Assembly: GCA_000165425.1 (NCBI GenBank)
Contig: CT868108.1
Span: 248,001 to 312,000 of the forward strand
Source: Paramecium tetraurelia
Taxonomy: Eukaryota
Direction: 5' to 3'
DNA: 64,000 nucleotides
In this document: in pieces, positions 4,042-61,353 of the stretch
How the letters are laid out: every line of letters starts with the position of its first letter
How positions within the stretch are numbered: position 1 is the stretch's first letter
The notes under the pieces: generated by a model
What the model was told of the DNA's origin: nothing
Databases searched by the model: none
The model's input: the letters and a program-made list of their open reading frames with translations, nothing else
Made by a program: the position numbers and the translations under genes

Positions 4042-6175
4042 TTATTTAAAAAGAATATATTATGTAAAATTACTTACAGCAAGTTCAATAAATGCTAAAA
4101 ATACAAAAATTTCAAAAGATGTGGAATTATTGTTGTTAGTTTTATGAATTTGGAATACTTCATCCGACTTTAAATATTCTGTTAGGAATTGAATTTAGTG
4201 CACTTGCCACAACACCATCCAGTTTTATCTAACTGTTATTGTCAAAACATTTTTATTTGCCCTAAAATTATCTAACTCCAACTTAAAAAAAAGAATTTGA
4301 TGAGATGCTTTAGAAGAGTGATGAATTTGATCAAAGGAATTTAGGGTATATTTGAACATCTAAATTAATAGGACAGTTTTAGGAATGATTGTGTTAGGAG
4401 CAATAGGATTTTTTGTTTTTGGATTTGCTTTAGTAGGTGGAATTGGAGGAGGTGTATTAGGAGTTGTAGGAGGTCATTAAGTAGGAAAGAGAATTAAGAA
4501 GACTTTATAAAATAAATAGGATGTAAAGGAAATAGATATTTATGACATAAAAGTAAGAACTATTTTAAAATGGGCATATTTACAGAAAAAGTAATACTGT
4601 TATAATATGAATCTCCAAAGATTTGTTATTGAAAAAATCCTAACTGAAATTAAGATAGCTCTACATTTAAAGTATTTTTCAACTAACAACTAAACTCAAC
4701 TTTAGAATCTATTGAAAAAGACCTTTTTATTCCTTAATCAAGATTTGTATTTGTGTTCGATAGAATTAAGCTTATTATTGTTGGAGGAATAATTAAAGAT
4801 TTTAAGATATTATAGTTAGTAGGATTAAAATGTGTGTCTGAATCAAGAGGAAATGAAATTGCTTAATCAATAAATTAATTAGAGAAATCAACTGGAAATC
4901 TCTGTGTTGAAAGCCATAGACAATGTAATAAAACCTGTAGTAACATTATTTTCAAATTAACTACCTAATTATAAATAGCCATAGATAATTAAAAAGGCAA
5001 GAGAATTCCTTTATTCAAATGAGATTGTTCAATTGTCTAAGTAATTCCCTGATCCATAAATGAGTATCTATTATATAAAGATGCTGAGTTCATAATTAAA
5101 TTTAAGTGTAAATACAACAAATCTCAAATTATATGTTTAACAATAAAACTTCAGAAATTTGGAGAATGTTGGTTAAGATATTTAATGCATTATGCAGAAA
5201 TAGAATGCAAATTAGAATAGATTATAGGAGGAAGAAATAAAAATAAATATAGAACAAGTTCAAATTGAAGAATAATAGTGTGATGTCATCATTTAAAATA
5301 ATGAATCTTAAATTGAACTAGAAAAAATTGTAGAATAAAACCCTTAAGATATTAAATTAAAGTTACATTCTCACCCAAATAAAATCTATTTCACCAAAAT
5401 TGATCCTAAATGCAACATAAATTCAACTCCATATCAATCTTATGAAGATATAATTAATAATCCAGAAAAAGAAAAATAATTCTCGAGATACCCTTAACAC
5501 TATTGTTAATAATCAATTAAAAAATTTGATTTATTTTTAAATTTGATACATGAACCTACTGACAAATGGGATTTGGCAATTAACAATAAGGATGCATAAA
5601 TTTACAAAACTATGAAGGAAGGCTCTGACAACGTGTTTATTAAAGGCTTTTGTATTATTAAAAATGTAATAATTATTTATTTAAGTTTGATAGACCTCTT
5701 TAGAATTAGCCTTGAGAGTCGTTTACGACATTAAATTAAGGAGAGAATGGTATTTAATAAAAATTAACTAAATAGGGATAAATTACTAAGAGATTTCTAA
5801 ATTATAAAAACTGAATCTGAAGATATTGATATATTGGCATATTATGTTCAACCTCCAATAAGTCTCGTCACTCCTAGAGAATGGGTTTAAAGAAGAATTT
5901 TGAGATACGATTTTCCAGAAAAAGGGTAGATCACTTTAATATTCTATTCTATTGATTATCCTTAGCATCCAGTCAATAGAAATAGAATTAGAGCACACAC
6001 AGAAATATCATCCATGATTTTCGAGGCTTATGAATAAAACAATGTAAAAATCTCGATTTGTTCTAACAATGATATTAAAGGATATATTCCAAAAATGATC
6101 GTTAATAGAGCAAGTGCTAGTGGACCTATAGATTGGTTTAAGAGTTTATAAGAAGCCTGTAATAAATATAGATGA
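4042..6175 (+). CDS. START (lipid-binding) domain protein with N-terminal glycine-rich transmembrane segment; start approximate
   Basis: LGMIVLGAIGFFVFGFALVGGIGGGVLGVVGG near 4380-4475; C-terminal WDKLLRDFQII...PPISLVTPREWVQRR...PVNRNRIRA...DIKGYIPKMIVN is a START domain; TGA 6173-6175. Confidence 0.8.
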
Positions 6176-37228: not shown

Positions 37229-38329
37229 ATGAATCCTTAAAAAGTAAGAAATGGACCCAATTTCATGTAATAACTTAATAAGAAAAAACATGTAGATTGC
37301 GCTTTGAGTTCAAACTCTGATTCATCTGATGACGAAGTTGATGAAATTGTTGCAATCAAAAAAGATGTCCAAAAACAAGTAATCATTCCTAAAAATCTTA
37401 GAGATTCTCAGTCTCTGCTGAAGCTTATGGATAATTCAATAAAAAGGAGAACTTTAAAGCCAAATTTATTCCTAAAAGTAAGGAGCAATCTGAACGAATT
37501 AAGCAAAGAATGCAAGCAGGATTCATGTTTAGTGCTTTAAATGAAAAGGAAATTGAAATTGTTGTTGGTGCCATGGAAGAAAAGATCTTCCATAAAGCAG
37601 AATATGTAATTAAATAGGGAGAAGAAGGAAATGTACTCTATGTTGTCGACACAGGAGAATTGGATTGTTTTAAGAATTATGGCAAAGGAGATGTCCTTCT
37701 TAAAACATACTATCCAGGAGAAAGTTTTGGTGAATTAGCATTATTATTTTAATCTCCAAGAGTATCTTTTTCTATGAATTCATTAGGCTGCATCCATCAT
37801 CGTAAAAAGCGATAAAGCTATACTTTGGTAATTGGATAGAGAAACATTCAATCTAATTGTGAAAGAAGCATCTATCAAAAAGAGACAATAATTCGAAACG
37901 TACTTAAAATATTTATAAATCAAGTTTTCTTGAAAATTGGGATTTGCTAAAAGAAATTAAAGATCCATATGATAAATTGAAAATGAGTGATGCATTATTT
38001 GAAAAGTAATATAAAAAAGGAGATGTAATACTGTAATAAGGATAAAAAAGCTAAGAAATATTTATATTAGAATAAGGAAGAGTGAGTGTGAATAAAAATA
38101 ATTGTAAAATTCTATAAATATCATAGAAACATTATTTGAATTGACAAAATTGGGGGATTATTTTGGAGATTAAAGCATAGTAGCTGGCACATTAGAATCA
38201 TTTAGTTATGTGGCAGAAGGTGATATGAAATTGATGTATATCCCTAAGAAAAGTTATTCGTCAACTCTCAAAGAAATAGAAAGTACTTTATTGAAGAATA
38301 TTTAAACTAAGTATGGAAAATATTAATGA
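37229..38329 (+). CDS. PKA regulatory-subunit-like protein with two cyclic-nucleotide-binding domains
   Basis: VIKQGEEGNVLYVVDTGEL, GESFGELALLFQSPRAASI, LWQLDRETF; second CNB domain GDVILQQG...GDYFGD. Confidence 0.85.
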
Positions 38330-38690
38330 TATTATATATTAAAGTATTAAAATATTTTGATTTATATAAATATTATTACCTCAAATTTATTCATTCTCAT
38401 TAAGATTTACATTCCTTTAACATTTTAATGAATGATAATTACTTTTAAAGTATTTCATAGAAAATTCAACTCTTAAAATATCATTTTTTTGTGATTGTCA
38501 AATTCATTAATAATCATTTATTTTGTTTGGATGCCAAAATTTAATATATATAATCGAAATTCAAATTTTTAAGATATTTTATATGATATTAAATTTTCTT
38601 AAAGAATAATTCGCATTAGATTTACAAATCTACACAGAAGTATTTTTGGTGCATTCAACAATCATATAGTAAATAAATTAATTTTACAAA

Positions 38691-40027
38691 ATGGATGAGT
38701 AAATTATATAGGAATTCTCACGGGGAATTGATTATTAATATTCACAACATAGGGTTCATGTAAAATAGATGTCTTCATATTCTGGTTAATGGCTAGAAAA
38801 ATGATATTAAATATACAATTGAATCATAAATTAATGTAAAGTTCGAAAGAAGGCCAAAGGAATTTTTCCACTTAAGTTTCGTAATCTACAGACACAAATG
38901 AGATTGGAGTTATCGAGGATTCTACATTACTGGAAAGAATAAGAGCAGCATATAAGGATATTTTCGCCTAATCATCCTTCTCATCACTAAAAAATTACTA
39001 ATTCTAGAATGACATTGTAACAGGAGAAGTATAAACAGTAATTATATTAAAAGCCAACAAAAGTGCTTTCATGCGCCTTCGATAATACAACTTAATTCTT
39101 AGCTTCAGCTAACTCTGACGGTCTCGTAAATATTGCGTATTTGGGGAAAGATTACACAATAGTTCCATTATCAGATCCCAAATAGAAACCAGGTCCAGCC
39201 ACATGCGTCAAATGGAGACCTGGTTAAGTTGTAGAGCAATTAAAGCATACATTATTATCAACATACGCTAATGGAAGTATTATATATTGGCATGCGACAT
39301 CTAAATAATCATTGTTTAATTTAGAAGATAAGGATAATCAAATCAATTGTTGTGAATTCTCCTTGGATGGAGATAAGTTTGTAATAGGTGGTTCTGATTG
39401 TCCAGGTTAAACTTTATGATTGCGGAAAATTGAGTAAGGCTCCTACTACTTTTGTGGAAGGACAATCTGCTGTTCATTAGAATCGGATATTTGGTATGAA
39501 ATTTAATTAGGGAGATCACAATTAACTCTATACAGGAGGATGGGATAAAATGGTGATTTAATGGGATTTAAGACAAAAGAAATCAACTGGTTATATCTTT
39601 GGCCCTTGTGTCTATGGAGACTCTATGGATTCAAAAGGATTTTAATTGATCACTGCATCCTATAGAGATGAAAAACAATTAGAAATTTGGGACACTAGAA
39701 CTTTAAATAAATTATAGACTATTGAATGGGCTGAGTATGCAAATAATGTTTAAGGATTACTACCTAAACACAATGTTAGTAAATTGTATGCTTGTAAGTT
39801 TGACAAGAGAACCAACTATATTTATGCTGCAAACGCTGGAAGGTAATCAATAATATCATTTAAGTGTATTTTCTGAAATAAGACAGTTTGATTCCTAGTA
39901 TAGGTGTGTTGATACATATTGCTGTTCATTAAGTGGGGTAATGACAATCGATTATAATACAAGTTACAATAAATTAAGTTATGGAACTTCAGATGGTAAA
40001 TTGGGTGTACTGAATTTAGTAAATTGA
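38691..40027 (+). CDS. WD40-repeat protein (one apparent frameshift near 39401)
   Basis: CEFSLDGDKFVIGGSD, HQNRIFGMKF...LYTGGWDKMVIQWDLRQ, IFGPCVYGDSMD, QLEIWDTR. Confidence 0.8.
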
Positions 40028-45259: not shown

Positions 45260-45818
45260 TCAATCACTTGATCGGGAATGAGAACTCGAGGAACTCTTTC
45301 TCCTTTTTTTCTTAGACTTTTTCTTTTCACTACTGGAGGAAGAGCTGGAAGATCTATGCTTTGGATGTTTTTTTTTCTTTTTTGAATGGCGCCTAATGTC
45401 ACATGTTCTTATACCTGGAGTCAGAGTAGGAGCGTCGATTCAAACGACAATTGCGGGCACTAAAAAGAATGATGAGAATAAATACAAATGCCCCTATTTA
45501 CCACATTGATAACATGCACCATCTTTTTTCTTTGCTCGTGCTAACTCGACAATTAGATTTCTTCCATTGAAGTCTTGCATATTCATTAATCTAACTGCAT
45601 CAGATGCGTCCTCAGGCTTGGCATAAGCCTGTACCCTAAATGCCAAACGGTCCATGTCTTACGATGAAACAAAATCGCCCTTTCCAAGAAAATTCTTGAA
45701 TTTCGCCATGTCTAGCAAAAGCGTTCTTAATTTCCATTTCAGATTCTTTAGCAGAGTATCCTGTCACATAAATTCGATTGGCTTCCTCTTTTTTATGCGA
45801 TCCTGAATCTGATGACAT
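45260..45818 (-). CDS. SR-type splicing factor (RRM + CCHC knuckle + basic S/K/R tail; SRSF7/RSZ-like)
   Basis: RIYVTGY...FARHGEI...RFCFIAYAKPEDASDAVRLMN...GRNLIVELA; CYQCGKQGHFARNC; three micro-introns. Confidence 0.88.
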
Positions 45819-46111
45819 ATTTTTTAAATTATTTAATTTAATGAATGATGGTTAGATTAAAATACTCAAATAGAAGCATTTTATAAATATATACATAAGG
45901 TATAATTTAATAAATAGAATTCCTCTAACTCAAAAATAATATTTCATTAAATCTCTTCTATTCTATGGTATTTAAAGTGAAGGATCTCAAGTATATAGAT
46001 GGGGGCATTGAGTTCGTAATATAAAATGATTTAGATAAAGAAGTGTATTTCATTCTTGTACATTAATCTAAATACCTGTTCAGAATGTATCAGAGGTAAT
46101 TATTTAATTTA

Positions 46112-49100
46112 ATGTTCTTTTCACATTTAACACCACATACAGTGGCATCGCTTTAAGGCACAAGAATTTAGCAGCTGCATCCAGCAAAAGACTCCAGTGG
46201 TTTAGCAATTGCAAATGTATGCTTCAGCGAAGGCGTTCATTATTGGGAAATCGTATGCCCTTTTAATACGGATGGAGTGAAAGTAAGGCGTAGTCCTAAT
46301 TGCAGATTGGCATATCCAAATAGTAATCTCCAAGCGAAAACTTTGAGGGACACCTATTCGAATTTAAAACGACAACTCAGAGAGTAGTGGGTGTGCTTCT
46401 CAATTTCAACGAGTAATCACTGTAATTCTACTTGAATGGCAATCTGAGTACTAACAAAGGCATACCAAAGGGCAGTCTGATTTCATGTCCTTGGTACCCT
46501 TGTGTTAGATTATCGCAATTTGGCAATTCGGTGTATTTGACAATGAAGTATGAGGATCGCAGTGTCGTAGAGCATTGCGAATAAGTTCAGCTTGAGACCT
46601 AGTAATCGTAGCATCCAAATCCCTTCTTCTTGATTAATAAGTATCTATAATATGATATAGATAGAAATGAAATTCATCAATTGCAAGATCGATTAGTGTC
46701 AGTTCGAAATTGTCCTTTGGTTGGATAACAGATTCCTAAGGCAGATTTAGATGTACTAATAAAGATGAAGTTGGTGATCTGCGATTATCATGACCAGAAT
46801 GAGATAGTATATTTAATTTTGAATGAAGAAACATCACAAAAACTTAAAAGGGTAAGACAATATTTAAAACATCATGTGAGGAAGTTGAAGGAGAAATTTG
46901 AGAGCAAACCATAGGAGAAGGAAAAAGATTAATTGTTGCAGGAGATCACATAGATGTTGCCAAATAACGAGGAAATAGTGTAGGAAGAAAAAAAGGATGA
47001 ATTTGAATACAAATATTCAATAGAACTATGCAGAATAGCCGATAGAATAATTGTTTAATTGATAGAATAATTTGAAGAGGTCAGAAGTATTGAATCTGCT
47101 AAGATGAGATTGTAAACATTTGTTGATCATCCTGCTACAGATAATCCATTTAAAGTTGTTGAATATGGAAAATACTTACAACCAGGTTCAGGAGTCAAGT
47201 ATGCATATTGTGATAATGACATCAACAACAATGGAACCAAACATTCGAAATTAATATTGCGAAGTGAAATACCTGCATAAGGCTAAATAATCCCATGCAA
47301 AAGTGATCGCTATTTCTCATTGAGGAATTAAGATCGATTAACCATTTACAATGGAGAAGCAGAACTATTCAAAGTCATTGATGTAGATTTGAGACAATTG
47401 GGACCATATCAAAAAAATATCAAGGTAATAGATGTCCAATAGGAGGAAACACCCAGTCACATATATAAAATATTGGAAAATTATATTATTGGGGAAACCG
47501 AACAATTGCCATTATATGATCAAACAATACTTGAGAAGTTGATCAGAATGGGTTTTGAGGAATCAGATTGCAAAGAGGCACTTATACAGACTAATAACAA
47601 TTTTGACAAAGCACTCGACATTGTAAGTAGAACCACTGGAGAATGGCAATGCAAATTCTGTACTTTGGTCAATAAAGAAACCAATCAAATTTGCGAGGCT
47701 TGTGAAGGTCCAAGACCAGATGATTCATAGGAAGAAGAATTTCTTATTAAATAACCATTGCAAATTTAATAAGATTTGGTGGAAGTGGATTAAAAGGAAG
47801 AAATTCATTAGGAATTTAAAGATAAAATCACTGAAAGCACTATCAATCATGTCTCAGTTATTCATTGGGATAGTAATAATACAACATTTCCAATATTAGT
47901 GGCAAGTGTTCATAATAAAAATATACTCTCTATTAAATTCATATCATATTCCTAAAATTATTTGGATCAATTTTTTATAAATGAGGATGGCTATTATTGT
48001 GTATTAACAAATTGTTGGAGCAAAAACAAGGATTACTCATTATTATTGCAATCTGAAACAAGTCGATAAATAGTTGAGACTCTGGCTCCTCTGTATAGTA
48101 AACATTGCAAAAAGTTAGAGATGAATCTAGTTGATCATAAAGCAATTCAATTAGAATATGAGATTAAAGCTATTGATAGTGCTATTTGGAATAATAGACT
48201 CTATGTTTTTTTGATGGGTGACTAAGCATTAAACATTTATGAAATCACTTAAAACTCTAAAATTGAACTTTAGAAATAGATCTTCATCGGATCTGATTAC
48301 AATCTCCTCATTTCCAAAACCAAATGTCTAATTTATAGTCAGTCAAAAAATTTGATTATCAATTCTCAATTAAATGTCTCTGAAATATAAGAACCAATTT
48401 CAAATGCATATATTAAAGATAATATCATCTGCTATGAAAGTAACACCCAACACAAGTAAATTGAAGACAACTCTGAAATCTTAGAGAATAATATTATTCA
48501 AAGTGAGGAAGTGTAGATCTTCTAAACTGTTACTGATGATGTTCACAGTTAGAAATTCTAAATTGCTGATAATTACACTCACATCCACGTCAAAGCTGTT
48601 TTTGAAGGACCCATTGAAGAACCCAAATAAATTCCATTAATGAACAGTCCCTTAACAGTGAGTGATCCTTAAAAATTACCTTTAACTGTCCATTCATTCA
48701 AAGGTGCCTCCTTTAATGATTAAACTTTTGTTACTTAAATGCTCTTTGATAGTAATAAACCCTTCTCAAGCAATTATCCAAACACTTAATTTATATTCAG
48801 AAGTCAATTTGATGAAATTATGCTCGTGGACCATGTTAGAGTTAAAAGTGAGATCACCAATGTCTTCAGAGGATTCCCCATTGGAACTGGATTGATCTTT
48901 ACTTCAAAAGAAGAGCATGAGTTGAATGACACTTCAGAATTTGATTATTTTGATAAACAACAATATGAAAAATGGAAATCAACTCATTAAAGTCTCTTTG
49001 CAAATCAACCAGTAGGGTACTTTGAATTTGAAGGAGACTCAAAAGAGGCTCTATGCAAATTGGAAGTTATACGACCATGCAAATATTTAATGCTTAAACC

Positions 49101-52100
49101 AACGAACTTTAGAAAAACACCTCATGATCATACAGCACATATTTAAACTAACTCCGTTGAAATCAAAGGTTTTGCTGCTTACGGAATTGAAATTCCCAAG
49201 AGTTAAATTGAAAATTCAACTTTTGGTACAATCTCAGACTGCTAATTATTAACCTAACTTAGAAAACGAATTGATCTACCAGATAAATTGATTGTTTAAT
49301 GTTAATATTAAGGAATAAATGGGTACCCAAGCAATGGTATTATTGAATTTGATACTGTATTTTCAGGAGATTTTATTATCAAACCATATGAAGATTAAGA
49401 ATATAAATTATTAAAGGTGACAGTGACAGGGAAAAAATATAATAATTTATATATCAATCAATTAGATAACCTAATAGAAGAGGTATATCAGAAAAAACCA
49501 GGGGCTTTGAGTGTTCTTAATTTATTCATGAAGAAAGAATCCAAAAAAGTATTAGAAATCATTAGTTTATCTAAATTTATTCTTGGAAATGTGTTGTCTT
49601 AGAATGTAAATGAATAAGTAACAGAATTCTTCAGACATCTCTAATAACACGATGAATTTCATGATATTTTATTGTAAGTGGCACAACAGATACTAAATAA
49701 GATTGAAAAAGTAGTTTTGACAGAAAGTGGTTTAGAATACTTTTTAGGATTGTTAACTTACACAGCCAAATTTAAAACACAAGAAATCACAGATCTGGCT
49801 ATAAAATCTTTATTGCTTGCTTTACAAAAGTTGAAAACAATTGAACACAAAGATATGTTCTTATTTTCAACCAAATACGGAGGTCCTCAAGGATAAGTTC
49901 AAATCTAAGAAATCGATGAAAAATAGATTGAATAGAATGGTAACTAGAAAACCTTGATATGCTAAAAGGATCCTCTGTCTTAGATTCTAATTATGCAATT
50001 GTCAAATAAGTAATAGATTAGGAGATTTGAAGTCAATCTTCTTGGAGAATTTGAAATTGAGAAATTGTCCTTAAGATTTCAATAGACATCCAATTCAGTC
50101 AAATTTAGAGTACAAGTTTGGGTAGACAATTTAGTATTAGATTAAGTTTATGATGAATGGACCTTTGTGTAATTCACTGATTATGTTCATAAGAGTGCTA
50201 ATTACAACAATTACAATTGCTTACACATTGGACTCAATAGAATTAGAGCTCGTAAATTATTGGTGCAATTAACTTTGGGAAGTGATAATTATTACTCTAA
50301 ATAATCAGTTTAGCTATAGATCCCATAGAATTACTTAACCATCATTCCAGAATTCTATGGATCTCTTTTGAATGCTGAATTAAGTCCATTAGAAATTACT
50401 GAAGATTTCAGATTTAAGAATACCTTATCATTAGGTGAATCCCTTTATTATGTCTATTAATCAGATAAATCTATACTCATGGACTCATACAATGTTTATA
50501 AAAAGACTGATTTAACTGATCATTACATAGTGATGTCAACTAAATCATTAAGGAGAAATGCTGATTATCTAGAACAAGCGATTTACAAATTGCAATCAGA
50601 AATGCAATTAAAAGAAAAAAGCAACCTACAAACAAATCACCTTTAAAATCTAATTGAATAAACTCAATTAGAATTTTTGAAAGTAGCACCCCCTAGAAAC
50701 TACGAAAACAATTCCAATTTCTTAACAGTATTCTCATCACTTCTGTTGAGAATGCTTATTGCTATCTCTGGCACAGTACCTGATGTATTAGAATTCATAA
50801 AACTTATCATATCACTGGGAGATATGAACGGAATTACTGATTTGGCTTTATAATTCATTCAAAAGAAAGTTAAAGACTAAATTCCTGAAGAACAATGGAA
50901 CGAATTGATTATAGGATAATTTACAAGTCAAAATGCTCTAAAGAAAAAGCTATTGCATTAATTGCCAATCCCAATATTGGAATCATTATAGAAATTAATT
51001 GAATTAAAAGATGATGTGCTTTATGACGCATTAGTAACACAACTATAGAGAATTCCACAGTAAAAATATACCGAAGATGGAAATCCAGATAATGAAAAGA
51101 TTTTAACTTTGATTTTTGAATTTCTTATCAATGATACTAAGTTTAGATTAAAGCTATTGTAAAATGCATTGCCAAAATGTACTGCTCTCTAAATAAAGAA
51201 TTCATTAAATGAAAAGATCCTAACAGATATATTTTCAAGGGGAATATCATAGCCAGAGAAATTCAAGTTTCTGTTGGAGATGCTCTTATAACCAAGACAA
51301 TTGGAAAGTAGATACACAGATTGGGCAGCTACACTATAATTGAGTGATCAAATAAATAAGACTTTATAAATTGAGAAGGATAGTTTGATCTATATATCAA
51401 AATACATAATATACTTCTGTTAAATCTACATAAAAGAAAATGTTGAAAAATTAAGCATTGATAATTTGTTATTGTTATTTGATTTTCTGACGAAGAGTGT
51501 AAAGAAGGTAAACAAATTGAAAACTAGAGAAACCAATAAACAGTTAACTGATTTTGAAGACTTTTTGTAAAGATAACACATTTAAATATGTTATCCAGAC
51601 ACAATAAATAGACTGATCCAATTATTAGAGAAATCAGAGAATTACCTAGCTTGGAATAAGGTATTGAAAGTGATATTGATGATAACACCTCAATTGCAGA
51701 ATGAACTACAAATTTATCAAAGGGTTATCCAATCATATTTAGGATGCAAATAGAAGTTGTTGATGAATGAGTTACTCTAATTCACTCTTAATTTAGCATA
51801 ATAATAAGTACAATAAAATCAGACATGTTCGCAAATTATCGATGCCTTATTACCACATCTGGGATTAAATGAAATAAACCATATCTTCATAGTATTCTCC
51901 TAAGATGTATAACACATCTACTTGAATAATGTTAATATTCTACTCAAATACATAGGCATGTATCTACCATATTAAGGAGGAAAGGATGGCATCATTAATG
52001 CTGACAGTCAAGTGATTCAATAACTAGAACTCTGTTAATCGATGATCTACTTACTAGTGCAAAGTGAGTAAACCTTACCATAACTAAAGGAGAGTCCGGA

Positions 52101-55100
52101 TTTGAATAATTTATTCGAATGGTTTTGTTTGAATTGTTATTCTGGAAAACAGATACATTCATATGCTGGCTAATTACTTGAGTGGATGAGTGAATCATTA
52201 GATTAACTCTTTGAATTGTTACCATGCAAATAATACATCTTAAAATAATTATTCAAATAGCAATACTACATAGATGATGTGATAACTAAACAGTATGAAA
52301 ATAATTAGATCACTTCATATACTGCATTTACATATACAACTCAGATTTTGGAAGTGATTCAATCACAATTTGATAAGTATTTAACTTCAGATGATGTTGC
52401 ATAGCAATTCTAATCAGATATCTATCATTACCTAATAAATAAGATCATATAGGAGAAACAAATTACATAGGTCTAATTTTTAGAAGAAGAATTTGGCAAT
52501 AAAATGAAGGTTTTCAATTTGCCAGGCCAAAATGTGTCTAATTAAGATTGGCCATTGCACAAGAAAGGAGCAAAGAGTAGATTAGCTCTTATTACTCTAC
52601 CCTAGGGAATGAGAAGTGAATATCAAATGGTCTTCTAATTCGATAATGAAATCGAAATCAAAAATATTAGATTGGGCATTTAAACATTTACTGCAGATTT
52701 TACAGACAAATAATTAGGTACTCCAAGCAGTATCTTACTAGAAGTAGGCAAATCACTAGAAGAACTATACCCAATTGCTGAAATGCAATTAGTAAATGAC
52801 GAGCATTATTCGCAATATTAAGTCAAAGTCTTTTGCTATAATTCTCAGGTCATGAATAAGTAACAATTACCTTCTGGACAATCTGTGAAATTCATAAGTT
52901 TCAGAATGAGATAACAATATGTGGAATAATTGGACACTACTAGAACTATGAAAAAGCTGTGTTTGGGTATCAGTTTTATTTCTGTTATTGGATACAGTGC
53001 AATTCGATAAAAGGTTGATTTCATTTACACATTGTAAGAGAAGACTGCAATCGAAATTCTATCCAAATTCTGTAAGCCCAATTATCAGAAGACATTACAA
53101 TAGTTAGCCAACGATTCCATAGTATTGGAATAACTCTAAAATAATATTGATAAGTTCATGAATGCTCTTAATTCCTATTCATTTTAATTAAGTCCTTTGA
53201 TTTTAGCAATTGCTAAATATAATCATCAGGTTGGAGATTGGCTTGTAATGAAGTTGATGGAATACCCTGAATAATCACATAGTAAATTACTAAGTCAAAT
53301 TATATTGGAAGGAGAACATGTTCATGAAAGATTCCTGAAATTACACAACCATCTATTTGAAAAACTCTTGGCTCTCCAAATTAACAATCATCAATAATAA
53401 GATCTATTGTGGTATGAAAAATTAGCTCAACATTTCATTGAATCTTATTGCAATGTTCTTTTATTACAAAATAGCAAATTGAAATAAAGAGAATTATCTT
53501 TAAATATTAATAAAAATGACATAATACATTTAATCGAATTGTTTTAATTGATGCATAACAAACACGCTAGACATTTGCTTATCAAACTAATAGTCACAAT
53601 CACTTATCTACCACATCCTTATTAATAAATTGAAGAAGTTGAATAGATCCTGTAATTCACTTTGGATAAGAGTAGAACCTAACCATATTTCCTTGAAGTT
53701 CTTGGACCCTTGTCATTGGGTAACAAAGTAAGTATTGGATGGATTGTGAATCAATTGGATTAAATTTTTGATAAATTTGATTTGAACTCTGTTATTCCAT
53801 TCTTTTATACTCTATCGACCAATAAAAAGATTGCTGATCATTTACTCAAATATCTTCTCCCTCTATATCATTTGTTAATAGAAGAACCGACAAGCAAGAC
53901 AATCTTGAAATAATTAGATGATAAAACAATTGAAACAGTGGCTAAATTCATAAGTTATATGGTATAGAAGTATCATGCAAAATTCATCATTGAAGCTTTG
54001 ATTCGAGATATTGGCAGATTGGAAGGAAATAAAGATATGAAGTTTGTGAGATCCTTGTTGGTTCCTATTTTGAACAGTGAAGATTATGTGTTTTTGAAGA
54101 TTCAATTTGAAGATCAAGGCAGATATATTTTGGACCCAAAGTTGATTGCTTAAAAAAGGATTGATAATACCTAAAAGTAAGACGAAGTAGTTTTTGAATC
54201 ACAATTACTAACAATAAAGTAAAAAGATTAATTGTTTGCTCATTTAACTGAAACCTATTGGAATAAGGTGGCTTATTAGAAAAATGATGGAGATTCTGAT
54301 ATTTTACCACACTTAGAAGATAAATTCTTTAATTCTACTCCCTAAATGATGGTTATTAACTATAAAATCAATAATACAGACAAAACTATTATTTTATATC
54401 ACAATGAGAAATGCATAAAATAAGACAAATCAGATTTAGCATACTCTTGGAATCAAGGGAAGTTGAAAGTATACTATTTCAATGAGAATAATTTAATTGT
54501 CAATGAGGAGATCGACCTGAATGCCTTCATTGAAATATATGATGAGTAAGGTACCTTAACCTTCTAAAATAATGATAAGGCGTTCTTAGAATTAGAATAT
54601 GTGGCAGGAGAACCCTCAAGAATCAATTTAACATCATTAAATCTAAAAGATTAGGGAATAATAGACAATTTAAAGATTGAATACTATGTCTCTGGAGTTA
54701 GACCTTAAAAATAAAAGAAAGCATTGCCATAAATCAATATCCCACAAGAGACTATCAGTTAAATATTCCCTAATTATGAGACTAATTAATCATTGTAATA
54801 CTATAGTGCTGTTCCAGTTTACTAATTGCCAAGTTAGCTAAAACTAAATGAATTGAAATAATTGATAGTTTTCAACAAGTATGGATTAAAATAGGAATGC
54901 AATATATTTGAAAAATAGACAAAATTGTGTGAGTTACCTACAAATGAACTAAATATTATTGAGCTAGAAGTCAATGCAAGAGACTTCATAGATAATATCC
55001 AACCCAAGACATTAACATTCACATATCCATAACAATTAACAATATTCCCCTTATTTGAAGAAATGAATGGGGTAAATGCTATGTTATCAGTAATTAGAGA

Positions 55101-58100
55101 AGGAATTGGATTATGGAAGAATTAATAGAGAGCAAATGCTTGGCTATAATTCTTGAATGAATTGCAATCATTTTGTTAATTGCCCAATTTTTTCAATTTG
55201 TTTATGAAGAACCAATTATGTGTAAATCTATTGTTTGATTTAATTGCCGGACCCCCAGACTCAAACAATTAGAAATTAGAAGAGGAAGAATAAAATGCTG
55301 TTAAGTTCATCTACACTACATTGGTTAGCGTATTCAGTGCTAGTAGTGGACCAGAAGTAAGAATAAAGGCTTTGGAATAGAATTTAATCAAATAAATCTT
55401 AGACCGAATAGCTTTGGTTAGTAAGGAGACTAAGAGAGTATTTAGAAATGTGCTTGAAAAACAAGTGGTATAAGAATCACCTCAGAAAAATAACACATTG
55501 CAGAAATCAACAAAATAGAAGAGAGGAGTGGGATATGCAAGTGATAATACTGGATAAAATTAGAAATGGAACACCATAGAATATGTGGAGAAGAAAACAT
55601 AAAAGTCATAACAATTAATTGGTTTATTGGGTATAGTAGAGTCATTCTTTGATTTCCAACATTGGCATCCAAGTGAAGACCTATTACATAAATTAAAGAA
55701 CACCTTATTTGAAAGTGCATTATTGCCTTTGCTAGAAAGTGCATTCAGAAGTGGCTCACTTTTGGAAATATCAAAAGAATTCGATTTGTATTGCAAGTAT
55801 TTGAAGATAGTTTAATCCATGTCTCATCATAAAGTATTGGCCGGTGTTTTCTTAAAGATACCTGAGTAGTATTATCCTCCTCAAACTTAATCATTATTTG
55901 AATTGTTAAGTGCTTTGGCAGATACATCCAAAATCTTTATGAATTGCATCTAAAATAATAGAAAGAAGAATGAAGAAGAAGAGCACTCATTTGAGATTGC
56001 CAAAATGATTATAGATACTCATAAACGAATGGAAAATTGCATCAATAAAATGAATGATAGTGGTAGTAGTAGCAATGAAGAGGACGAGACTGAATAACTC
56101 AAGAAATAGAAAGAACTAGCAAATGAATTAATCTAATAGATTCTATCCAAATAATTACCTGAAGCATACAGAACCTTGTTGTCAGACTTGAGATTCAATT
56201 ACATTGATATGAAGGTTGGTGGCAGATATAAACATCATTACTCAGGCAACATATCAACCTAAATAAATCAAGATAAGATCGTAAGATTAGCCTAAGAATT
56301 TGCAGATATGTCAACATCCTTACCAATTGAACACACGAATGCCATATTTGTAAGAGCTGACAAAGAACGTGTAGATGTAATGAAAGCATTAGTTATGGGT
56401 GCAAAAGGTACTCCTTATGGACATGGTGCATTTCTATTTGATATTTATGCTGATGATTCATATCCGAATGCTCCCCCTAAAATGAATTTATCTACTACAG
56501 GAAATGGAAAAGTCAGATTCAATCCTAATTTGTATAGTTGTGGAAAAGTATGTTTGTCACTCTTAGGTACATGGAGAGGAAATGCTTCTGAAAATTGGGA
56601 TCCAAAAATCTCTACTCTCCTTTAAGTTTTAGTATCCACCCAAGCCATTATTATGAGTGAAGAGGTGTATTTCAATGAACCAGGCTCTGAATAGGAAGCA
56701 AACACAGATGAAGGTGAAAAGAGAAATGAAGGATATTCTAATATTGTCAGATATTGCAACATCAAATATGCTATGATAGACTAAATTAGAGATCCACCAA
56801 AAGGATTTGAAACTATTATTAAAAGACACTTCTATCTCAAAAAATAGGAAATCTTGGAGGAATGCAATAAGTGGGTTGAACTTGCAGATACAAAAGAAGC
56901 TTTATATACTGGGTTACTAAATGATCATAATTCCAGCTGGTGTAGTGAATTCAAAAAGAGCAAGAAAGCATATCATAAGAAGTTGTCTGAAGCTGTTAAA
57001 GAATTGGAGGAAGAATTGAATAAAATTTAACCACCTTCTGCTGCTGATTTAGAAGGATCCAGAGTACTAAGGACTCATGTCAAGAAACAACCTAAAGTTA
57101 AAAATCTAAAAGAGGGAATGGCCAATTTGGATGAAGTAGATGTTACATACACAAAGATCTAATAGAAGGAATTCGAAGCAAATGATGAAAATGTCTTAGA
57201 TAGATGGAGTAGATACATAGGTGCTATGGGAATGGATGCAGTGAAGAAATAGGCAAATAGTTGTGTTTTGGTATCTGGCATTGGAGCTTTGGGTATTGAA
57301 GTAGCCAAAAATATAGTATTATCAGGAGTCAAAATGCTAACAATTCATGATTAACAAAAAAGCACTTAATTTGATCTTAATGGGTAGTTCTTCATTGAAG
57401 AAAAAGATATTGGCAAGAACAGAGCTGAAGTTAGTTGGGAAAAATTGCAATAGCTCAATTCATATGTCAGAGTAAATTATGAAACATCAGAACTCCTTAA
57501 TATCGACTTCACTAAATACAACATTGTAGTAGTCTGTGCTACATATCCAAATGATGTATTATTCAAATTATCAACATTATGTCGTTAACACAAGGTCAAA
57601 TTAATTATTAGTTCAGTTGATGGAGTCTTCGGAAGAGTGTTCAATGATTTTGGATAGTCTTTCATTGTTGAAGACAAGAATGGGGAACAAACTGTTGATT
57701 ATATTGTTAAATCTGTTACTGATAAAGGGGAAAATAAGTTGCACTTTGAAATCACAGGTAAACATGAATTTTAAGATAATGATGTTGTTATGATTGATAA
57801 TATTGAAGGAATGATAGACTCAAATGGAAATTCAATTAACAAAACCATTTAAAAGGTCAAAGTAATTAGTAAATCAATCTTGGAGATTCAATTAAATGGA
57901 TATTCAAAATACATTCGAAATGGAACTATTAAATTGGTTAAAGTACCTGTTGAATTATCATTCCACCCCTACAATCAAGAATTCATCGATAAACCAATTT
58001 ATGATCCAAATATGTCAGAATACGATTTCATCAAATTGTAAAATACTGAACAACTACACAGTCTTTATAATAATAAATAGATCAAGGATGAAAATTTCGA

Positions 58101-60170
58101 ATTGTTATTCAAACATTACTCAATTTTAGGAGAGTTCTCACCTTTGTCTGCTTATCTTGGAGGCTTCGTCTCACAAGAGGCCATCAAGGGAATAACTAAT
58201 AAATTTACTCCAGTTTAACAACTATTCTATGTGGATTGCACAGAAGTATTATAAAAAGAGATATCCAAAGATGTCAAAGTCAGTGAAAGATCTTTAAGTA
58301 GATTCTTGGGTACAGAAATTGCTGAAAAATTAGAGAAATCTAAAATATTCATGGTTGGATGTGGTGCAATAGGTTGTGAATTACTCAAGAATTTTGCCAT
58401 GCTTAATTTAGGAATAAAAGGTTCAATCACAATAACTGATCCAGACCATATTGAAGTTAGTAATCTAAATAGGTAATTCTTATTCAGGGAAAAACACTTA
58501 AGAAAACCTAAGTCTTAGACAGCAGCTGCTGCAGTCATTTAAATGAATCCGTATTTGAGAGATCACATCATAGCAAGACTAGATAAGGTTCATGACTCAA
58601 CAGAACATATATACACAGATCAGTTCTTTGAAGATCAAGATATCATTGCTAATGCTCTAGATAATGTAGCTGCTAGAAGATATGTAGACAAACGATGTGT
58701 TAATTCTCGTAAGCCACTATTGGAATCTGGTACTCTTGGACCAAAAGGTCATGTACAATGCATCGTTCCATTTTAAACTGAATCTTATGGCAGTTCTAAT
58801 GATCCTGTAGAAGAAGGAGAAATTCCATATTGCACACTCAAGATGTTCCCTGAAGAGACTTTCCATTGTGTCGAATTTGCAAGGGATAAATTTGGCAAAC
58901 ATTTTTCAGCAAGACCAAAATAATTAATAAAAATGATGGCTGAAGATTATATCCCCCAGTTTAGAAGATAATAAACCTTTTAAGAGAGGCTATCAAATTG
59001 TTTAAGAACAAACCAAACTCCTTTGAAGATTGCATTAAGTGGGCAAGAGGAAAGTTCTAGAAATACTTCATTAATGACATCAAATAACTAATGTATACAT
59101 ATCCAGAAGATGTTAAGACCAAGGATGGAAATCTGTTTTGGACTATGCCTAAACGTCCTCCCAAGCCTATTTAATTTGATCCTGAAAATGAAATTCATCA
59201 ATAATTTGTATCTACCTTTGCTTTTCTCAGAGCCAAAATGTTCAGTCTTTAAACTGACAAAGATTGGAGAACTAAAACTTATAGATAATCAGTAGCTAAA
59301 CAAGCTAATCTAATCACCTTCCCTGAATGGCAACCAAGTGAAGAAAAGAAGAAAGTATTTATATATTTAATAATAATTTTAGTCTATTTCCGATAAGGTT
59401 AAAGAGCAAGGATAAAAAGAAGAACCTGAAGAGAATGAGACTACTCAAACCCAAAGCACTTAAGAGGAAACACAATTGTTATTTAAATAATTTAAATCTT
59501 TATTGCCAATCACTTTAGCATCTGATGAATTTGAAAAGGATAATGATTAAAATGGACACATCGATTTCATACATTCCTTTGGTAATTTAAGGGCTGCAAA
59601 TTATAAACTGGAACCCATGGATTGGCTAACTGTGAAAATTAAAGCTGGTCGTATTGTGCCTGCTTTGGCTACTACCACTGCTGTTGTTGCTGGACTATAG
59701 ACAATAGAATTAATTAAAACTTTGAAGAATGTATAGATTTCAGACATGAAAAACGCTTTTGTCAACTTAGCCATTCCCTTTGTGAAATTAACTGAACCAG
59801 GTTTGGTACCCAAGAAGAAAATCAATGAAAAAGTCACTGTTACGTTATGGGATATATGGACACAAGAAATTACAAAGCAAACTACTTTCAGATAGTTGTT
59901 TGAGATTCTGAATTAATAATATGATTTACATCCAAGAGATGTGTTTTTGAAGGCTTAACCTGTGTATATGGAAATAATGTATGCGAAAAAGGCAGAAGAG
60001 AAAAAACACTTTTTGGGACCAAGCAATCATTAAAGTATTAGAAATACAGGTATAATATAATGTTATTTTTTATTAGAAATATGTTGGATTTGACTATCAA
60101 TTTTACATTAAATTAGGAGAGTTAAGAAATTATCAAGGGAATTCCGTAAGTCAGATTGGTTTTGAAGTGA
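46112..60170 (+). CDS. Giant E2-E1 fusion: SPRY - UBA - NZF - BIRC6/BRUCE-like body and UBC - UBA6-like ubiquitin-activating enzyme
   Basis: One frame runs from 46306 to ~58958: track ORFs 47473, 49417, 49678, 55627, 56308 and 58543 are co-frame, and no in-frame TGA was found in the stretches read codon by codon. [23 protein letters not shown] (Cys 56551); E1 [30 protein letters not shown] (Cys 58831), [13 protein letters not shown]. Confidence 0.92.
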
Positions 60171-60226
60171 TATCAATATTTTATCAAAATATAAATCATA
60201 AAATATTATTTTCTTATATTTATGAT

Positions 60227-61353
60227 TCAATATCTCTGTTGTTGGAAATAGTTATCTTCCAATTCATCAATAAATGTGAAATAGGCAATCACAGCAGTAA
60301 TATCATCGCAACCAAATTTCAAGTATGGCAAATCACCAATCTTTGAGTTTGTCTTCTTTTATTTGTTCATTTCATCCCATCTGGATCTGCATTCAGTAAC
60401 CTATATAAATATCAATATCTACAATAGCTTCAGCCACACTCTCTTTTGGCTCATGTTTCAAGACAAATCCACAGACTTCAGCACTACTCATCACATCCCA
60501 AACACCATCTGATCCTATAACCATAAACTTGTCCTATTTTGTTAATTCAATATGTTGGACTTCTGGTTCTGAAATCAAGCCTATCTTCTTAGCTTGCAAA
60601 TCTCCCAATCTATAACTAATTTGAATTTCAATACGTTCTAGTCATGGCAATTCCTGGCCCCTCATCATCTGCCCAAATACGATATGGACCAACTGGCTAA
60701 CCATCATGTATTAGCCTTTCGATTTTGCCTCCACATTCTTATGATTCTCTCCTTCTCATCTGGTCTTGTTGGCTTATGAATCATATGATAATTCAATGGC
60801 CCAGTTTCTCTTTTGCAGTTTATCTAAATAGTACTGCTCTGGAATCACCCAGATTAGCAATGTAACACATATTCTTAACTACAAATATTGATATTGCACA
60901 TGTTCCAGAATTACTGTAATCTATACCAGAAGATCTGAGTTTTGCTTCAGCATTTTTAAAAGCACTCTTCAAAAAACTCTCTCTTTGTTTATCATTCTAT
61001 AATGCCTTGATTCTCTTTGGGTTTTTCTCCAAGAATGTCTAAATATAATCATTGGCTGCTTAGGATGCTTCTTTGCCTGAGGAACCATGACCATCATACA
61101 CTTATAATAAAAATGAAGTTAAACCTGCAAAGAAATAACAATCTTCAGTAAATCTTTCCATAGTACAATAGGAATCTTGACATTCAGTCTTTTTGGGACC
61201 ATATCCCATCTTTGAATGTCCAAATAATTTGATTTCCTTCATGGGATTTATCAAAGTCTTGTTGAGATTCTACACCACATTTTACTTCTTCTTCTTTTTC
61301 TTGTTCTTGCCACTCTAATTGCTATTACCTCCAAACCAATTAAGAAGAAACAT
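60227..61353 (-). CDS. Protein phosphatase 2C (PPM family)
   Basis: ECQDS, FAVYDGHG, SGTCA, ANLGDSRAV, GIAMTR-LGD, GSDGVWDV, DDITAV; three apparent single-base insertions at 60740-60803. Confidence 0.92.

Follow-up and report, generated by a model that had tools for sequence, protein, structure and literature searches.

Can a single eukaryotic polypeptide hold both a ubiquitin-activating enzyme (E1) and a ubiquitin-conjugating enzyme (E2), which the textbook view of eukaryotic ubiquitination treats as separate proteins? The question is raised by a locus on the + strand of a 64,000-nucleotide stretch of Paramecium tetraurelia DNA (contig CT868108.1, positions 248,001 to 312,000; hereafter the window, whose own numbering is used throughout), for which an original prediction, made from the letters alone, had proposed an in-frame fusion of a BIRC6/BRUCE-type E2 to a complete E1. 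Reading frame, homology and RNA together make it probable that one P. tetraurelia gene (46112..60170, +) encodes a product of about 4,700 residues, in which a giant body resembling combined conjugating and ligating enzymes (E2/E3), a UBC domain, a spacer and an E1 module follow each other in one chain. The in-frame passage from UBC to E1 holds, is transcribed and is deeply conserved; the E1, which had been called complete, is so in the transcripts, but is broken in frame in the window as written.

The coordinates and motifs that had been predicted are all exact, including the codons of the E2 cysteine at 56551 and of the E1 cysteine at 58831. The + strand frame is open from 46030 to 60093 (4687 codons) under the ciliate code (NCBI table 6), in which TAA and TAG encode Gln and TGA is the sole stop; the window is AT-rich, with a GC content of 0.23-0.34. 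An open frame by itself is weak evidence where TGA is the only stop, and support for the fusion is therefore taken from RNA coverage and conservation, not from the frame. Over the part searched, the frame is 100% identical to an annotated P. tetraurelia protein of 4620 residues (P0002), which carries the name 'unnamed protein product (macronuclear) [Paramecium tetraurelia]' at NCBI and 'UBA domain-containing protein' in UniRef. The annotated start is the ATG at 46112, with a further in-frame ATG at 45965, and the stop in the RNA-supported reading is the TGA at 60168-60170. The introns found are GTA...TAG elements of 23-28 nucleotides; one of 23 nucleotides, taken from the annotated model, lies at 46283..46305 (+) and joins two frames of an N-terminal SPRY-like segment.

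Conservation was followed in the best 120 listed long homologues (2577-8203 residues) that match residues 3380-4290. A UBC domain followed by an E1 is found in 78 of these, the E1 always being C-terminal, with a tail of at most 53 residues behind it; 40 have the UBC domain only, comprising animal and protist BIRC6-like giants and the metagenome protein P0080, which has the look of a ciliate protein of this kind truncated behind its UBC domain; two have the E1 only. Both parts also stand together in 86 of the best 120 listed shorter proteins matching the E1 part. Members of the fusion occur in five Paramecium species, three Tetrahymena species, Pseudocohnilembus, Moneuplotes, Ichthyophthirius and Platyophrya, several of them as open reading frames (ORFs) of single assembled transcripts. 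The Tetrahymena thermophila member (XP_976852, 7545 residues) is titled 'ubiquitin-activating enzyme E1', which bears out the earlier guess that databases already list such proteins as large E1s. In Paramecium, as in Tetrahymena, the proteins fall into at least three size classes, of about 1.85-2.7, 4.6-6.3 and 5.1-7.6 thousand residues.

The catalytic residues of both parts are kept together. In an alignment of the 78 C-terminal modules, where all exceptions are gaps, the E2 cysteine is present in 77 and the N, P and N of the FNPNLY motif upstream of it in all 78; on the E1 side, the glycines of GxGAIGCE in the active adenylation domain and the Arg of NRQFLF are each present in 76, and the Asp of ALDN and the E1 cysteine (PxCTLK) each in 75. 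The glycine motif of the inactive adenylation domain is degenerate across the same 78 proteins.

The smallest members differ in how complete they look. The form of about 1,850-2,000 residues has about 600 residues ahead of the UBC domain and appears complete. A set of similar size (P0182-P0212, about 1,970-2,040 residues) has an acidic N-terminus (MEDDDIDYD...), comes in clusters of up to 128 members and fills contigs of about 6.0-6.3 kb, as expected for the gene-sized chromosomes of some ciliates; its relatives include a Paramecium protein of 1,850 residues and a Tetrahymena protein of about 2,700. Proteins of about 1,340-1,460 residues that consist of UBC and E1 were considered as a 'minimal' E2-E1 and set aside, as many may be cut gene calls; in P0123, for instance, UQ_con begins at residue 3.

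The junction itself is a spacer of 107 codons (56875..57195, +), defined by frame, conservation and RNA depth, which runs from the extension of the UBC domain to the E1 and has no in-frame TGA over 56881-57180. Counted between two landmarks, the Trp at the end of the UBC extension and the Leu of LDRWSRY, it has 96-129 residues (median 110) in 78 of 78 fused proteins. It begins with a conserved, helical-looking part, continues with a variable, Lys/Glu-rich stretch of about 25-35 residues and closes with a conserved L[DE]x[IV]DVxY element directly before the E1. A conserved spacer, together with the catalytic pattern on either side of it, would fit a single protein that is selected as a unit.

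RNA from three stranded oligo-dT runs (raw reads of 58 nucleotides) covers 55000-60150 on the strand expected for a + strand transcript. Over the spacer (56840-57207) the depth is 7.6-17.1 in two bins, against 7.7-20.5 on the UBC side and similar values on the E1 side; in none of the three runs is a joint, a loose end or a poly(A) tail listed inside the spacer. Coverage over the UBC-E1 linker is thus gapless and no transcript ends are listed within 56881-57180, in line with the continuous linker that had been predicted. Several observations weigh on the other side. With reads of 58 nucleotides, no single RNA molecule is seen to span the spacer, and none of the eight listed X13 contig pieces (of 35) bridges 56891-57676. 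Moreover, in two RNA runs molecule ends pile up at 57212, just beyond the spacer, with 5 ends against a depth of 21 (X21) and 8 against 34 (X23). An internal start, or cleavage of the protein, may occur. Transcript continuity is well supported, yet not proven molecule by molecule.

These ends lead to the first alternative, namely that the locus makes two products, an E2 giant and a separate E1, through an internal promoter, a poly(A) site or proteolysis in the spacer, which would go on to act like any ordinary E1 and E2. The spacer is variable and looks disordered in its middle, which would suit such a cut, and a pair of metagenome proteins resembles its outcome: P0080 (5018 residues) ends 8 residues past the UBC extension, and P0128 (1146 residues) starts within the spacer and holds a whole E1, on a contig of the same length (24801) as that of P0080. 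The pair may be just a split gene call, or else a naturally split fusion. RNA depth neither falls nor changes abruptly at the spacer, where no loose ends with poly(A) are listed; furthermore, the in-frame junction, the length of the spacer and the motifs are kept in all 78 long and in the 86 shorter listed proteins, including those from single assembled transcripts. A conserved junction and spacer would be unnecessary were the parts made separately, which argues against two products, and we regard this alternative as improbable. The single fused chain is accordingly kept as the reading in what follows.

Is the E1 module of this chain a working enzyme? Its N-terminal part (57181..58952, +) lies in the main frame and comprises, by Pfam and alignment, the inactive adenylation domain, FCCH, the four-helix part, the active adenylation domain and the start of SCCH. 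The GCGAIGCE motif of the active adenylation domain is encoded at 58357-58380, and the E1 cysteine at 58831-58833, in an IPYCTLK motif that begins at residue 4265. The Pfam search by which the prediction was to be checked finds UQ_con, two ThiF stretches (3.1e-76), E1_FCCH (2e-09) and UBA_E1_SCCH (2e-20) in the window frame, and E1_UFD below its cut-off of 25 bits. E1_UFD stays below this cut-off in each of four proteins scored, with 18.1 bits in the window, 24.9 in the Paramecium sonneborni ortholog P0003, 20.2 in P0123 and 23.0 in P0190. In P0003, SCCH is full (254 of 254 profile positions, 233 bits), and the alignment with human UBA6 extends to residue 4643 of the protein's 4650 (residue 1006 of 1016 in the human chain). 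By its set of domains, the module is thus predicted to be a full enzyme of the UBA1/UBA6 family.

Downstream of 58952, the window as written departs from this enzyme at four places, all of them homopolymer runs. The first two are the C5 run at 58953-58957 and the T4 run at 58978-58981 (58953..58981, +), each of which is one base shorter in RNA: in the three runs, the base is missing in 2 of 4, 5 of 8 and 9 of 12 reads at 58953, and in 5 of 7, 8 of 13 and 6 of 11 reads at 58978. The only X13 contig in this place has both deletions, which shift the reading into the frame open at 58944-59429, and the core of SCCH (58982..59354, +) is obtained by translating that frame. A 28-nucleotide GTA...TAG intron follows (59355..59382, +), visible as spliced reads with loose ends at 59381/59383, and then, from translation and RNA, a segment (59383..60049, +) that supplies the end of SCCH and the C-terminal portion of the active adenylation domain and begins the UFD. 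In this segment, the G3 run at 60015-60017 is one base shorter in 1 of 2, 3 of 7 and 2 of 6 RNA reads, and in an X13 contig. A 27-nucleotide GTA...TAG intron (60050..60076, +), from whose border at 60049 loose ends continue with the sequence after 60076, leads to the last exon (60077..60170, +), which encodes the end of the UFD and the stop; here the fourth difference is a G in RNA (X13 loose-end consensus) for GG at 60085-60086. The C-termini of the orthologs P0003 and P0004 agree with this RNA-supported last exon.

With the four bases and the two introns removed, the E1 module has 976 residues and a single terminal stop, and 908 of these (93.0%) are identical in P0003, without gaps. The uncorrected reading stops at residue 809 of the module. 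The public protein P0002 keeps an out-of-frame stretch of roughly 50 residues in SCCH and a truncated UFD end, whereas the orthologs P0003 and P0004 and the ohnolog P0005 (the copy from whole-genome duplication) agree with the RNA. The four extra bases are thus most likely homopolymer errors of the reference that were carried into the public protein model, and the RNA allows this model to be corrected in both its out-of-frame stretch and its truncated UFD.

Were the four bases real, this copy would be decaying: its E1 would end after about 809 module residues, roughly 220 of them out of frame, and only the ohnolog P0005 would be working. In keeping with this, the out-of-frame stretch is present in both the window and P0002, some RNA reads at each of the four sites lack the deletion, and no DNA run contained more than 0.93 of the sampled words. 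The reads without deletions count against the reading of plain reference errors, and a frame-broken copy may be present in some cells or strains. Yet all four sites are homopolymer runs, and the sole RNA contig over 58779-59196, which has both of the first two deletions, differs from the window in only three other of its 416 letters, while the ohnolog differs at about 10 residues in the same stretch; the contig has too few differences for the ohnolog and thus comes from this locus. Moreover, the corrected module aligns to its ortholog without gaps, and there are no signs of decay downstream of the breaks. A decaying copy is therefore considered quite unlikely, and the corrected module of 976 residues is retained.

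The ohnolog is probably visible elsewhere in the RNA. At 58459, the letters upstream of a group of loose ends encode the same peptide with other codons; these divergent reads probably derive from the P0005 locus, and reads of this kind would probably also account for the many differences of mixed fraction that occur at the listed variant sites, roughly 81 in number.

How far does the other half deserve the name BIRC6-type? The UBC core with its C-terminal helical extension (56284..56874, +), delimited by Pfam UQ_con and matches in the PDB, has its UQ_con match at residues 3419-3559 (1.4e-18) and its cysteine codon at 56551-56553, in a motif that begins at residue 3505. Compared to solved structures, it is closest to the UBC domain of BIRC6 (3ceg, 237 bits), ahead of UBE2O (125) and UBE2Z (99), and against full-length BIRC6 (8atm) the UBC region scores 252.8 bits over BIRC6 residues 4165-4777. 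The region directly before it (55165..56196, +) has no match at E up to 1 in a single-sequence phmmer search; when profiles are compared with hhalign, it is homologous to the region before the UBC domain of metazoan BIRC6 (99.5% probability, E 3.4e-23, 357 columns, against animal BIRC6), and residues 3003-3346 of P0002 match fly BIRC6 4049-4440 with 98.3%. The BIRC6-homologous stretch ahead of the UBC domain thus amounts to 340-390 residues.

Beyond this stretch the likeness ends. In the 3000 or so residues of the body that precede it, no significant similarity to BIRC6 is seen, the next hhalign match having a probability of 20%, and a single-sequence search with the body (46030-56250) returns no PDB match at E up to 0.01. 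Neither BIR (PF00653) nor the Pfam BIRC6 domain (PF12356) was found in P0001 (the translation of the window frame 46030-60093), P0003 or P0012; both are also absent from the precomputed Pfam lists of the fused proteins, and both are present in those of insect BIRC6. The label 'BIRC6/BRUCE-type' is therefore apt for the UBC domain and about 340 residues before it, which together form the C-terminal 600 or so residues of the E2/E3-like part, and does not extend to the rest of the body. With no BIR domain and a body that is otherwise unlike BIRC6, the protein is best described, on its sequence, as a BIRC6-like E2/E3 candidate, not as an inhibitor of apoptosis protein (IAP).

The body does have two recognizable elements near its start, a UBA domain (residues 497-531, E 9.5e-09 in the window frame) and a RanBP2-type zinc ribbon (residues 537-564), found by Pfam and encoded together at 47518..47721 (+). 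The zinc ribbon (Zn_ribbon_RanBP) scores 26.6 bits in the window, slightly below the cut-off of 27; the pair recurs in P0003, where the ribbon reaches 28.2 bits. The two may bind ubiquitin. The resemblance of the N-terminal segment to SPRY was judged by eye only, and Pfam finds no family at all in 45845-46435 and no SPRY in P0003. Apart from the UBA domain and the zinc ribbon, the body is large and mostly unassignable.

From which E1 did the fused module arise? The fused E1s form one clade, with Shimodaira-Hasegawa (SH) support of 0.977 in a tree of 121 fused sequences and of 1.0 in a tree of 30 fused and 129 free ones, and with SH-aLRT 100 in a quick LG+C20 PMSF tree of 51 sequences. One 'free' sequence falls inside this clade and looks like a truncated gene call. 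The clade lies outside the sampled UBA1 clade, with 20 UBA1 sequences on one side of a branch supported at 98 in the PMSF quick tree, and FastTree places it within a UBA6-type clade (SH 0.996). The set of E1s next to or around it includes turtle UBA6 and proteins of Helobdella, Balamuthia, Dictyostelium, Mantamonas and Fabomonas; on the UBA1 side stand Willaertia, Mataza, Rhizamoeba and Monocercomonoides 'Uba1B' together with animal and fungal UBA1. A profile classifier (leave-one-out controls 12/12 and 12/12) assigns all 13 fused E1s examined to the UBA6 type, with a mean lead of 102.8 bits; its UBA6-type set is a grade that was taken from the tree, of which the classifier is thus not independent. 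The lead is largest in SCCH, in the active adenylation domain and in the UFD, while the first 190 residues give a tie.

Three results pull away from UBA6. A grouping of the fused E1s with UBA1 is not rejected in an approximately unbiased (AU) test on fast LG+F+G4 trees (log-likelihood difference 16.3, p 0.355); the N-terminal 590 residues of the E1 score higher with human UBA1 (439.7 bits) than with UBA6 (383); and the full-length E1 of P0003 ties between human UBA6 (581 bits) and human UBA1 (580). An origin of the fused E1 from the UBA6 type is thus likely but unproven. Among free E1s, those of Mantamonas (P0251), Dictyostelium (P0255), Fabomonas (P0284) and Balamuthia (P0241) group with animal UBA6 in FastTree and in a quick IQ-TREE.

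What would such a chain do? If it follows the chemistry established for separate E1s and E2s, the E1 module would adenylate ubiquitin and load its own cysteine, and the ubiquitin would pass to the cysteine of the tethered UBC domain, on the same chain or on the partner chain if the protein dimerizes as BIRC6 does; animal BIRC6 is described as an antiparallel dimer in the available extract of PMC10827748. The E2/E3-like body would then hand the ubiquitin to bound substrates, so that the chain as a whole would amount to an E2/E3 that charges itself through an E1 of its own. The spacer, of nearly fixed length and with a short flexible middle, could act as a tether that lets the UBC domain swing between the cleft of the E1 and the substrate site. 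Self-charging, and a relay along a single chain, in cis or in trans, are thus what we infer for this protein.

The fused E1 might instead work mainly on free E2s, as a general E1 or a second one of the cell for which the giant scaffold is no more than an anchor, or the tethered UBC domain might be charged by a free UBA1. SCCH and the UFD, through which free E2s are recruited, appear to be whole in the fused module, as would suit a general E1; the narrow range of spacer lengths and the fact that this E1 clade goes strictly with one type of UBC domain (121 fused E1s, one clade) argue for a coupled pair, and little credit is given to this alternative. A free ciliate UBA1, if there is one, would make the fused E1 a dedicated enzyme; among the 120 matches listed by a search with the UBA1-type protein of Mataza, mostly fungal and oomycete UBA1, there is no ciliate. 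The coupled pair, with the E1 charging its own UBC domain, remains the preferred reading.

The surroundings of the gene are compact. RNA flips strand at about 60152, the next gene being convergent; this minus-strand gene is transcribed more deeply over 60152-61100 than the fusion gene, and many molecule ends lie at 60241, about 70 nucleotides from the stop of the fusion gene. The ORF at 60393-60641 (-) contains GSDGVWDV..., by eye presumably a PP2C phosphatase motif. On the other side, minus-strand ORFs at 45440-45929 look by eye like an RRM protein with a zinc knuckle, and this gene lies immediately upstream of the start of the fusion gene, leaving a very short divergent intergenic region. 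Farther away, ORFs at 37345-39876 (+) have, again by eye, cyclic-nucleotide-binding-like (FGELALL) and WD40-like stretches.

If the relay operates as outlined, it would be a natural single-chain ubiquitination cascade in a eukaryote. The fusion would offer a ready-made system for the geometry of E1-to-E2 transfer, be it in cis or in trans, a way to ask why a giant E2/E3 should require an E1 of its own, and a handle on the age of the split between UBA1 and UBA6, all in the genetically tractable Paramecium and Tetrahymena. The sequences are already public under generic names, and the E2-E1 fusion has apparently never been studied: no paper on a eukaryotic one was found in the literature search, as far as the portions of the sources available to it go, while surveys of E2 domain architectures may show it.

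Among known systems, the closest on the E2 side is BIRC6 (BRUCE, Apollon), which shares the type of UBC domain with its extension, the region before it and the giant size. It differs in that the ciliate protein has the E1 in the same polypeptide and a UBA domain and RanBP2-type zinc ribbon in its N-terminal region, and in that neither BIR nor PF12356 was found in the fused proteins. The giant SPRY/ZZ proteins of other protists (Thecamonas, Hondaea, Planoprotostelium) end in the same type of UBC domain, and in hhalign the region ahead of it matches its counterpart in the fused family with a probability of 100% (E 3.2e-51); a ZZ finger also occurs in some fused members, such as P0012. In contrast to the fused proteins, these giants end soon after the UBC domain and have no E1 module. 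On the E1 side, UBA1 and UBA6 have what appears to be the same full set of domains, and their ATP-binding, Arg, Asp and Cys residues are kept in the ciliate E1, which differs from them in being, throughout the fused clade, a C-terminal module behind a UBC domain.

In Drosophila, the E1 that partners BIRC6 is UBA1. Mammalian BIRC6 is charged by UBA6 rather than UBA1, the UFD interface mattering most, according to the available extracts of PMC12999496 and PMC13623948; tight coupling of one E1 to one E2 is thus already the rule for this type of E2 in mammals. This allows a Rosetta-stone interpretation of the ciliate gene, put forward tentatively and as the less firm part of this analysis: a UBA6-like E1 and a BIRC6-like giant E2 may already have been a dedicated pair in early eukaryotes, which ciliates welded into one chain and then expanded into paralogues. 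On this view, the UBA6-like lineage would also have separate, free members in Amoebozoa, Mantamonas, Fabomonas and animals. If the interpretation is true, the mammalian UBA6-BIRC6 'private channel' would long predate animals.

An E1-E2 fusion does have a precedent outside eukaryotes. Cap2 of bacterial CBASS, like related bacterial E1/E2 fusions, combines E1-type adenylation and thioester modules with an E2-type module in one chain, and it is the example that reviews give for a fusion of this kind; in the part of PMC12355090 that was available, Cap2, in prokaryotes, is the only such fusion named, and the available part of 10.1101/2022.03.31.486616 describes it as conjugating a cGAS-like enzyme. 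Cap2 is small and prokaryotic, whereas the ciliate chain joins a eukaryotic UBA1/UBA6-type E1, with FCCH, SCCH and a probable UFD, to a BIRC6-type UBC domain. As the closest relatives of both ciliate modules are found among eukaryotic E1s and BIRC6-type E2s, the ciliate fusion would have arisen independently of Cap2.

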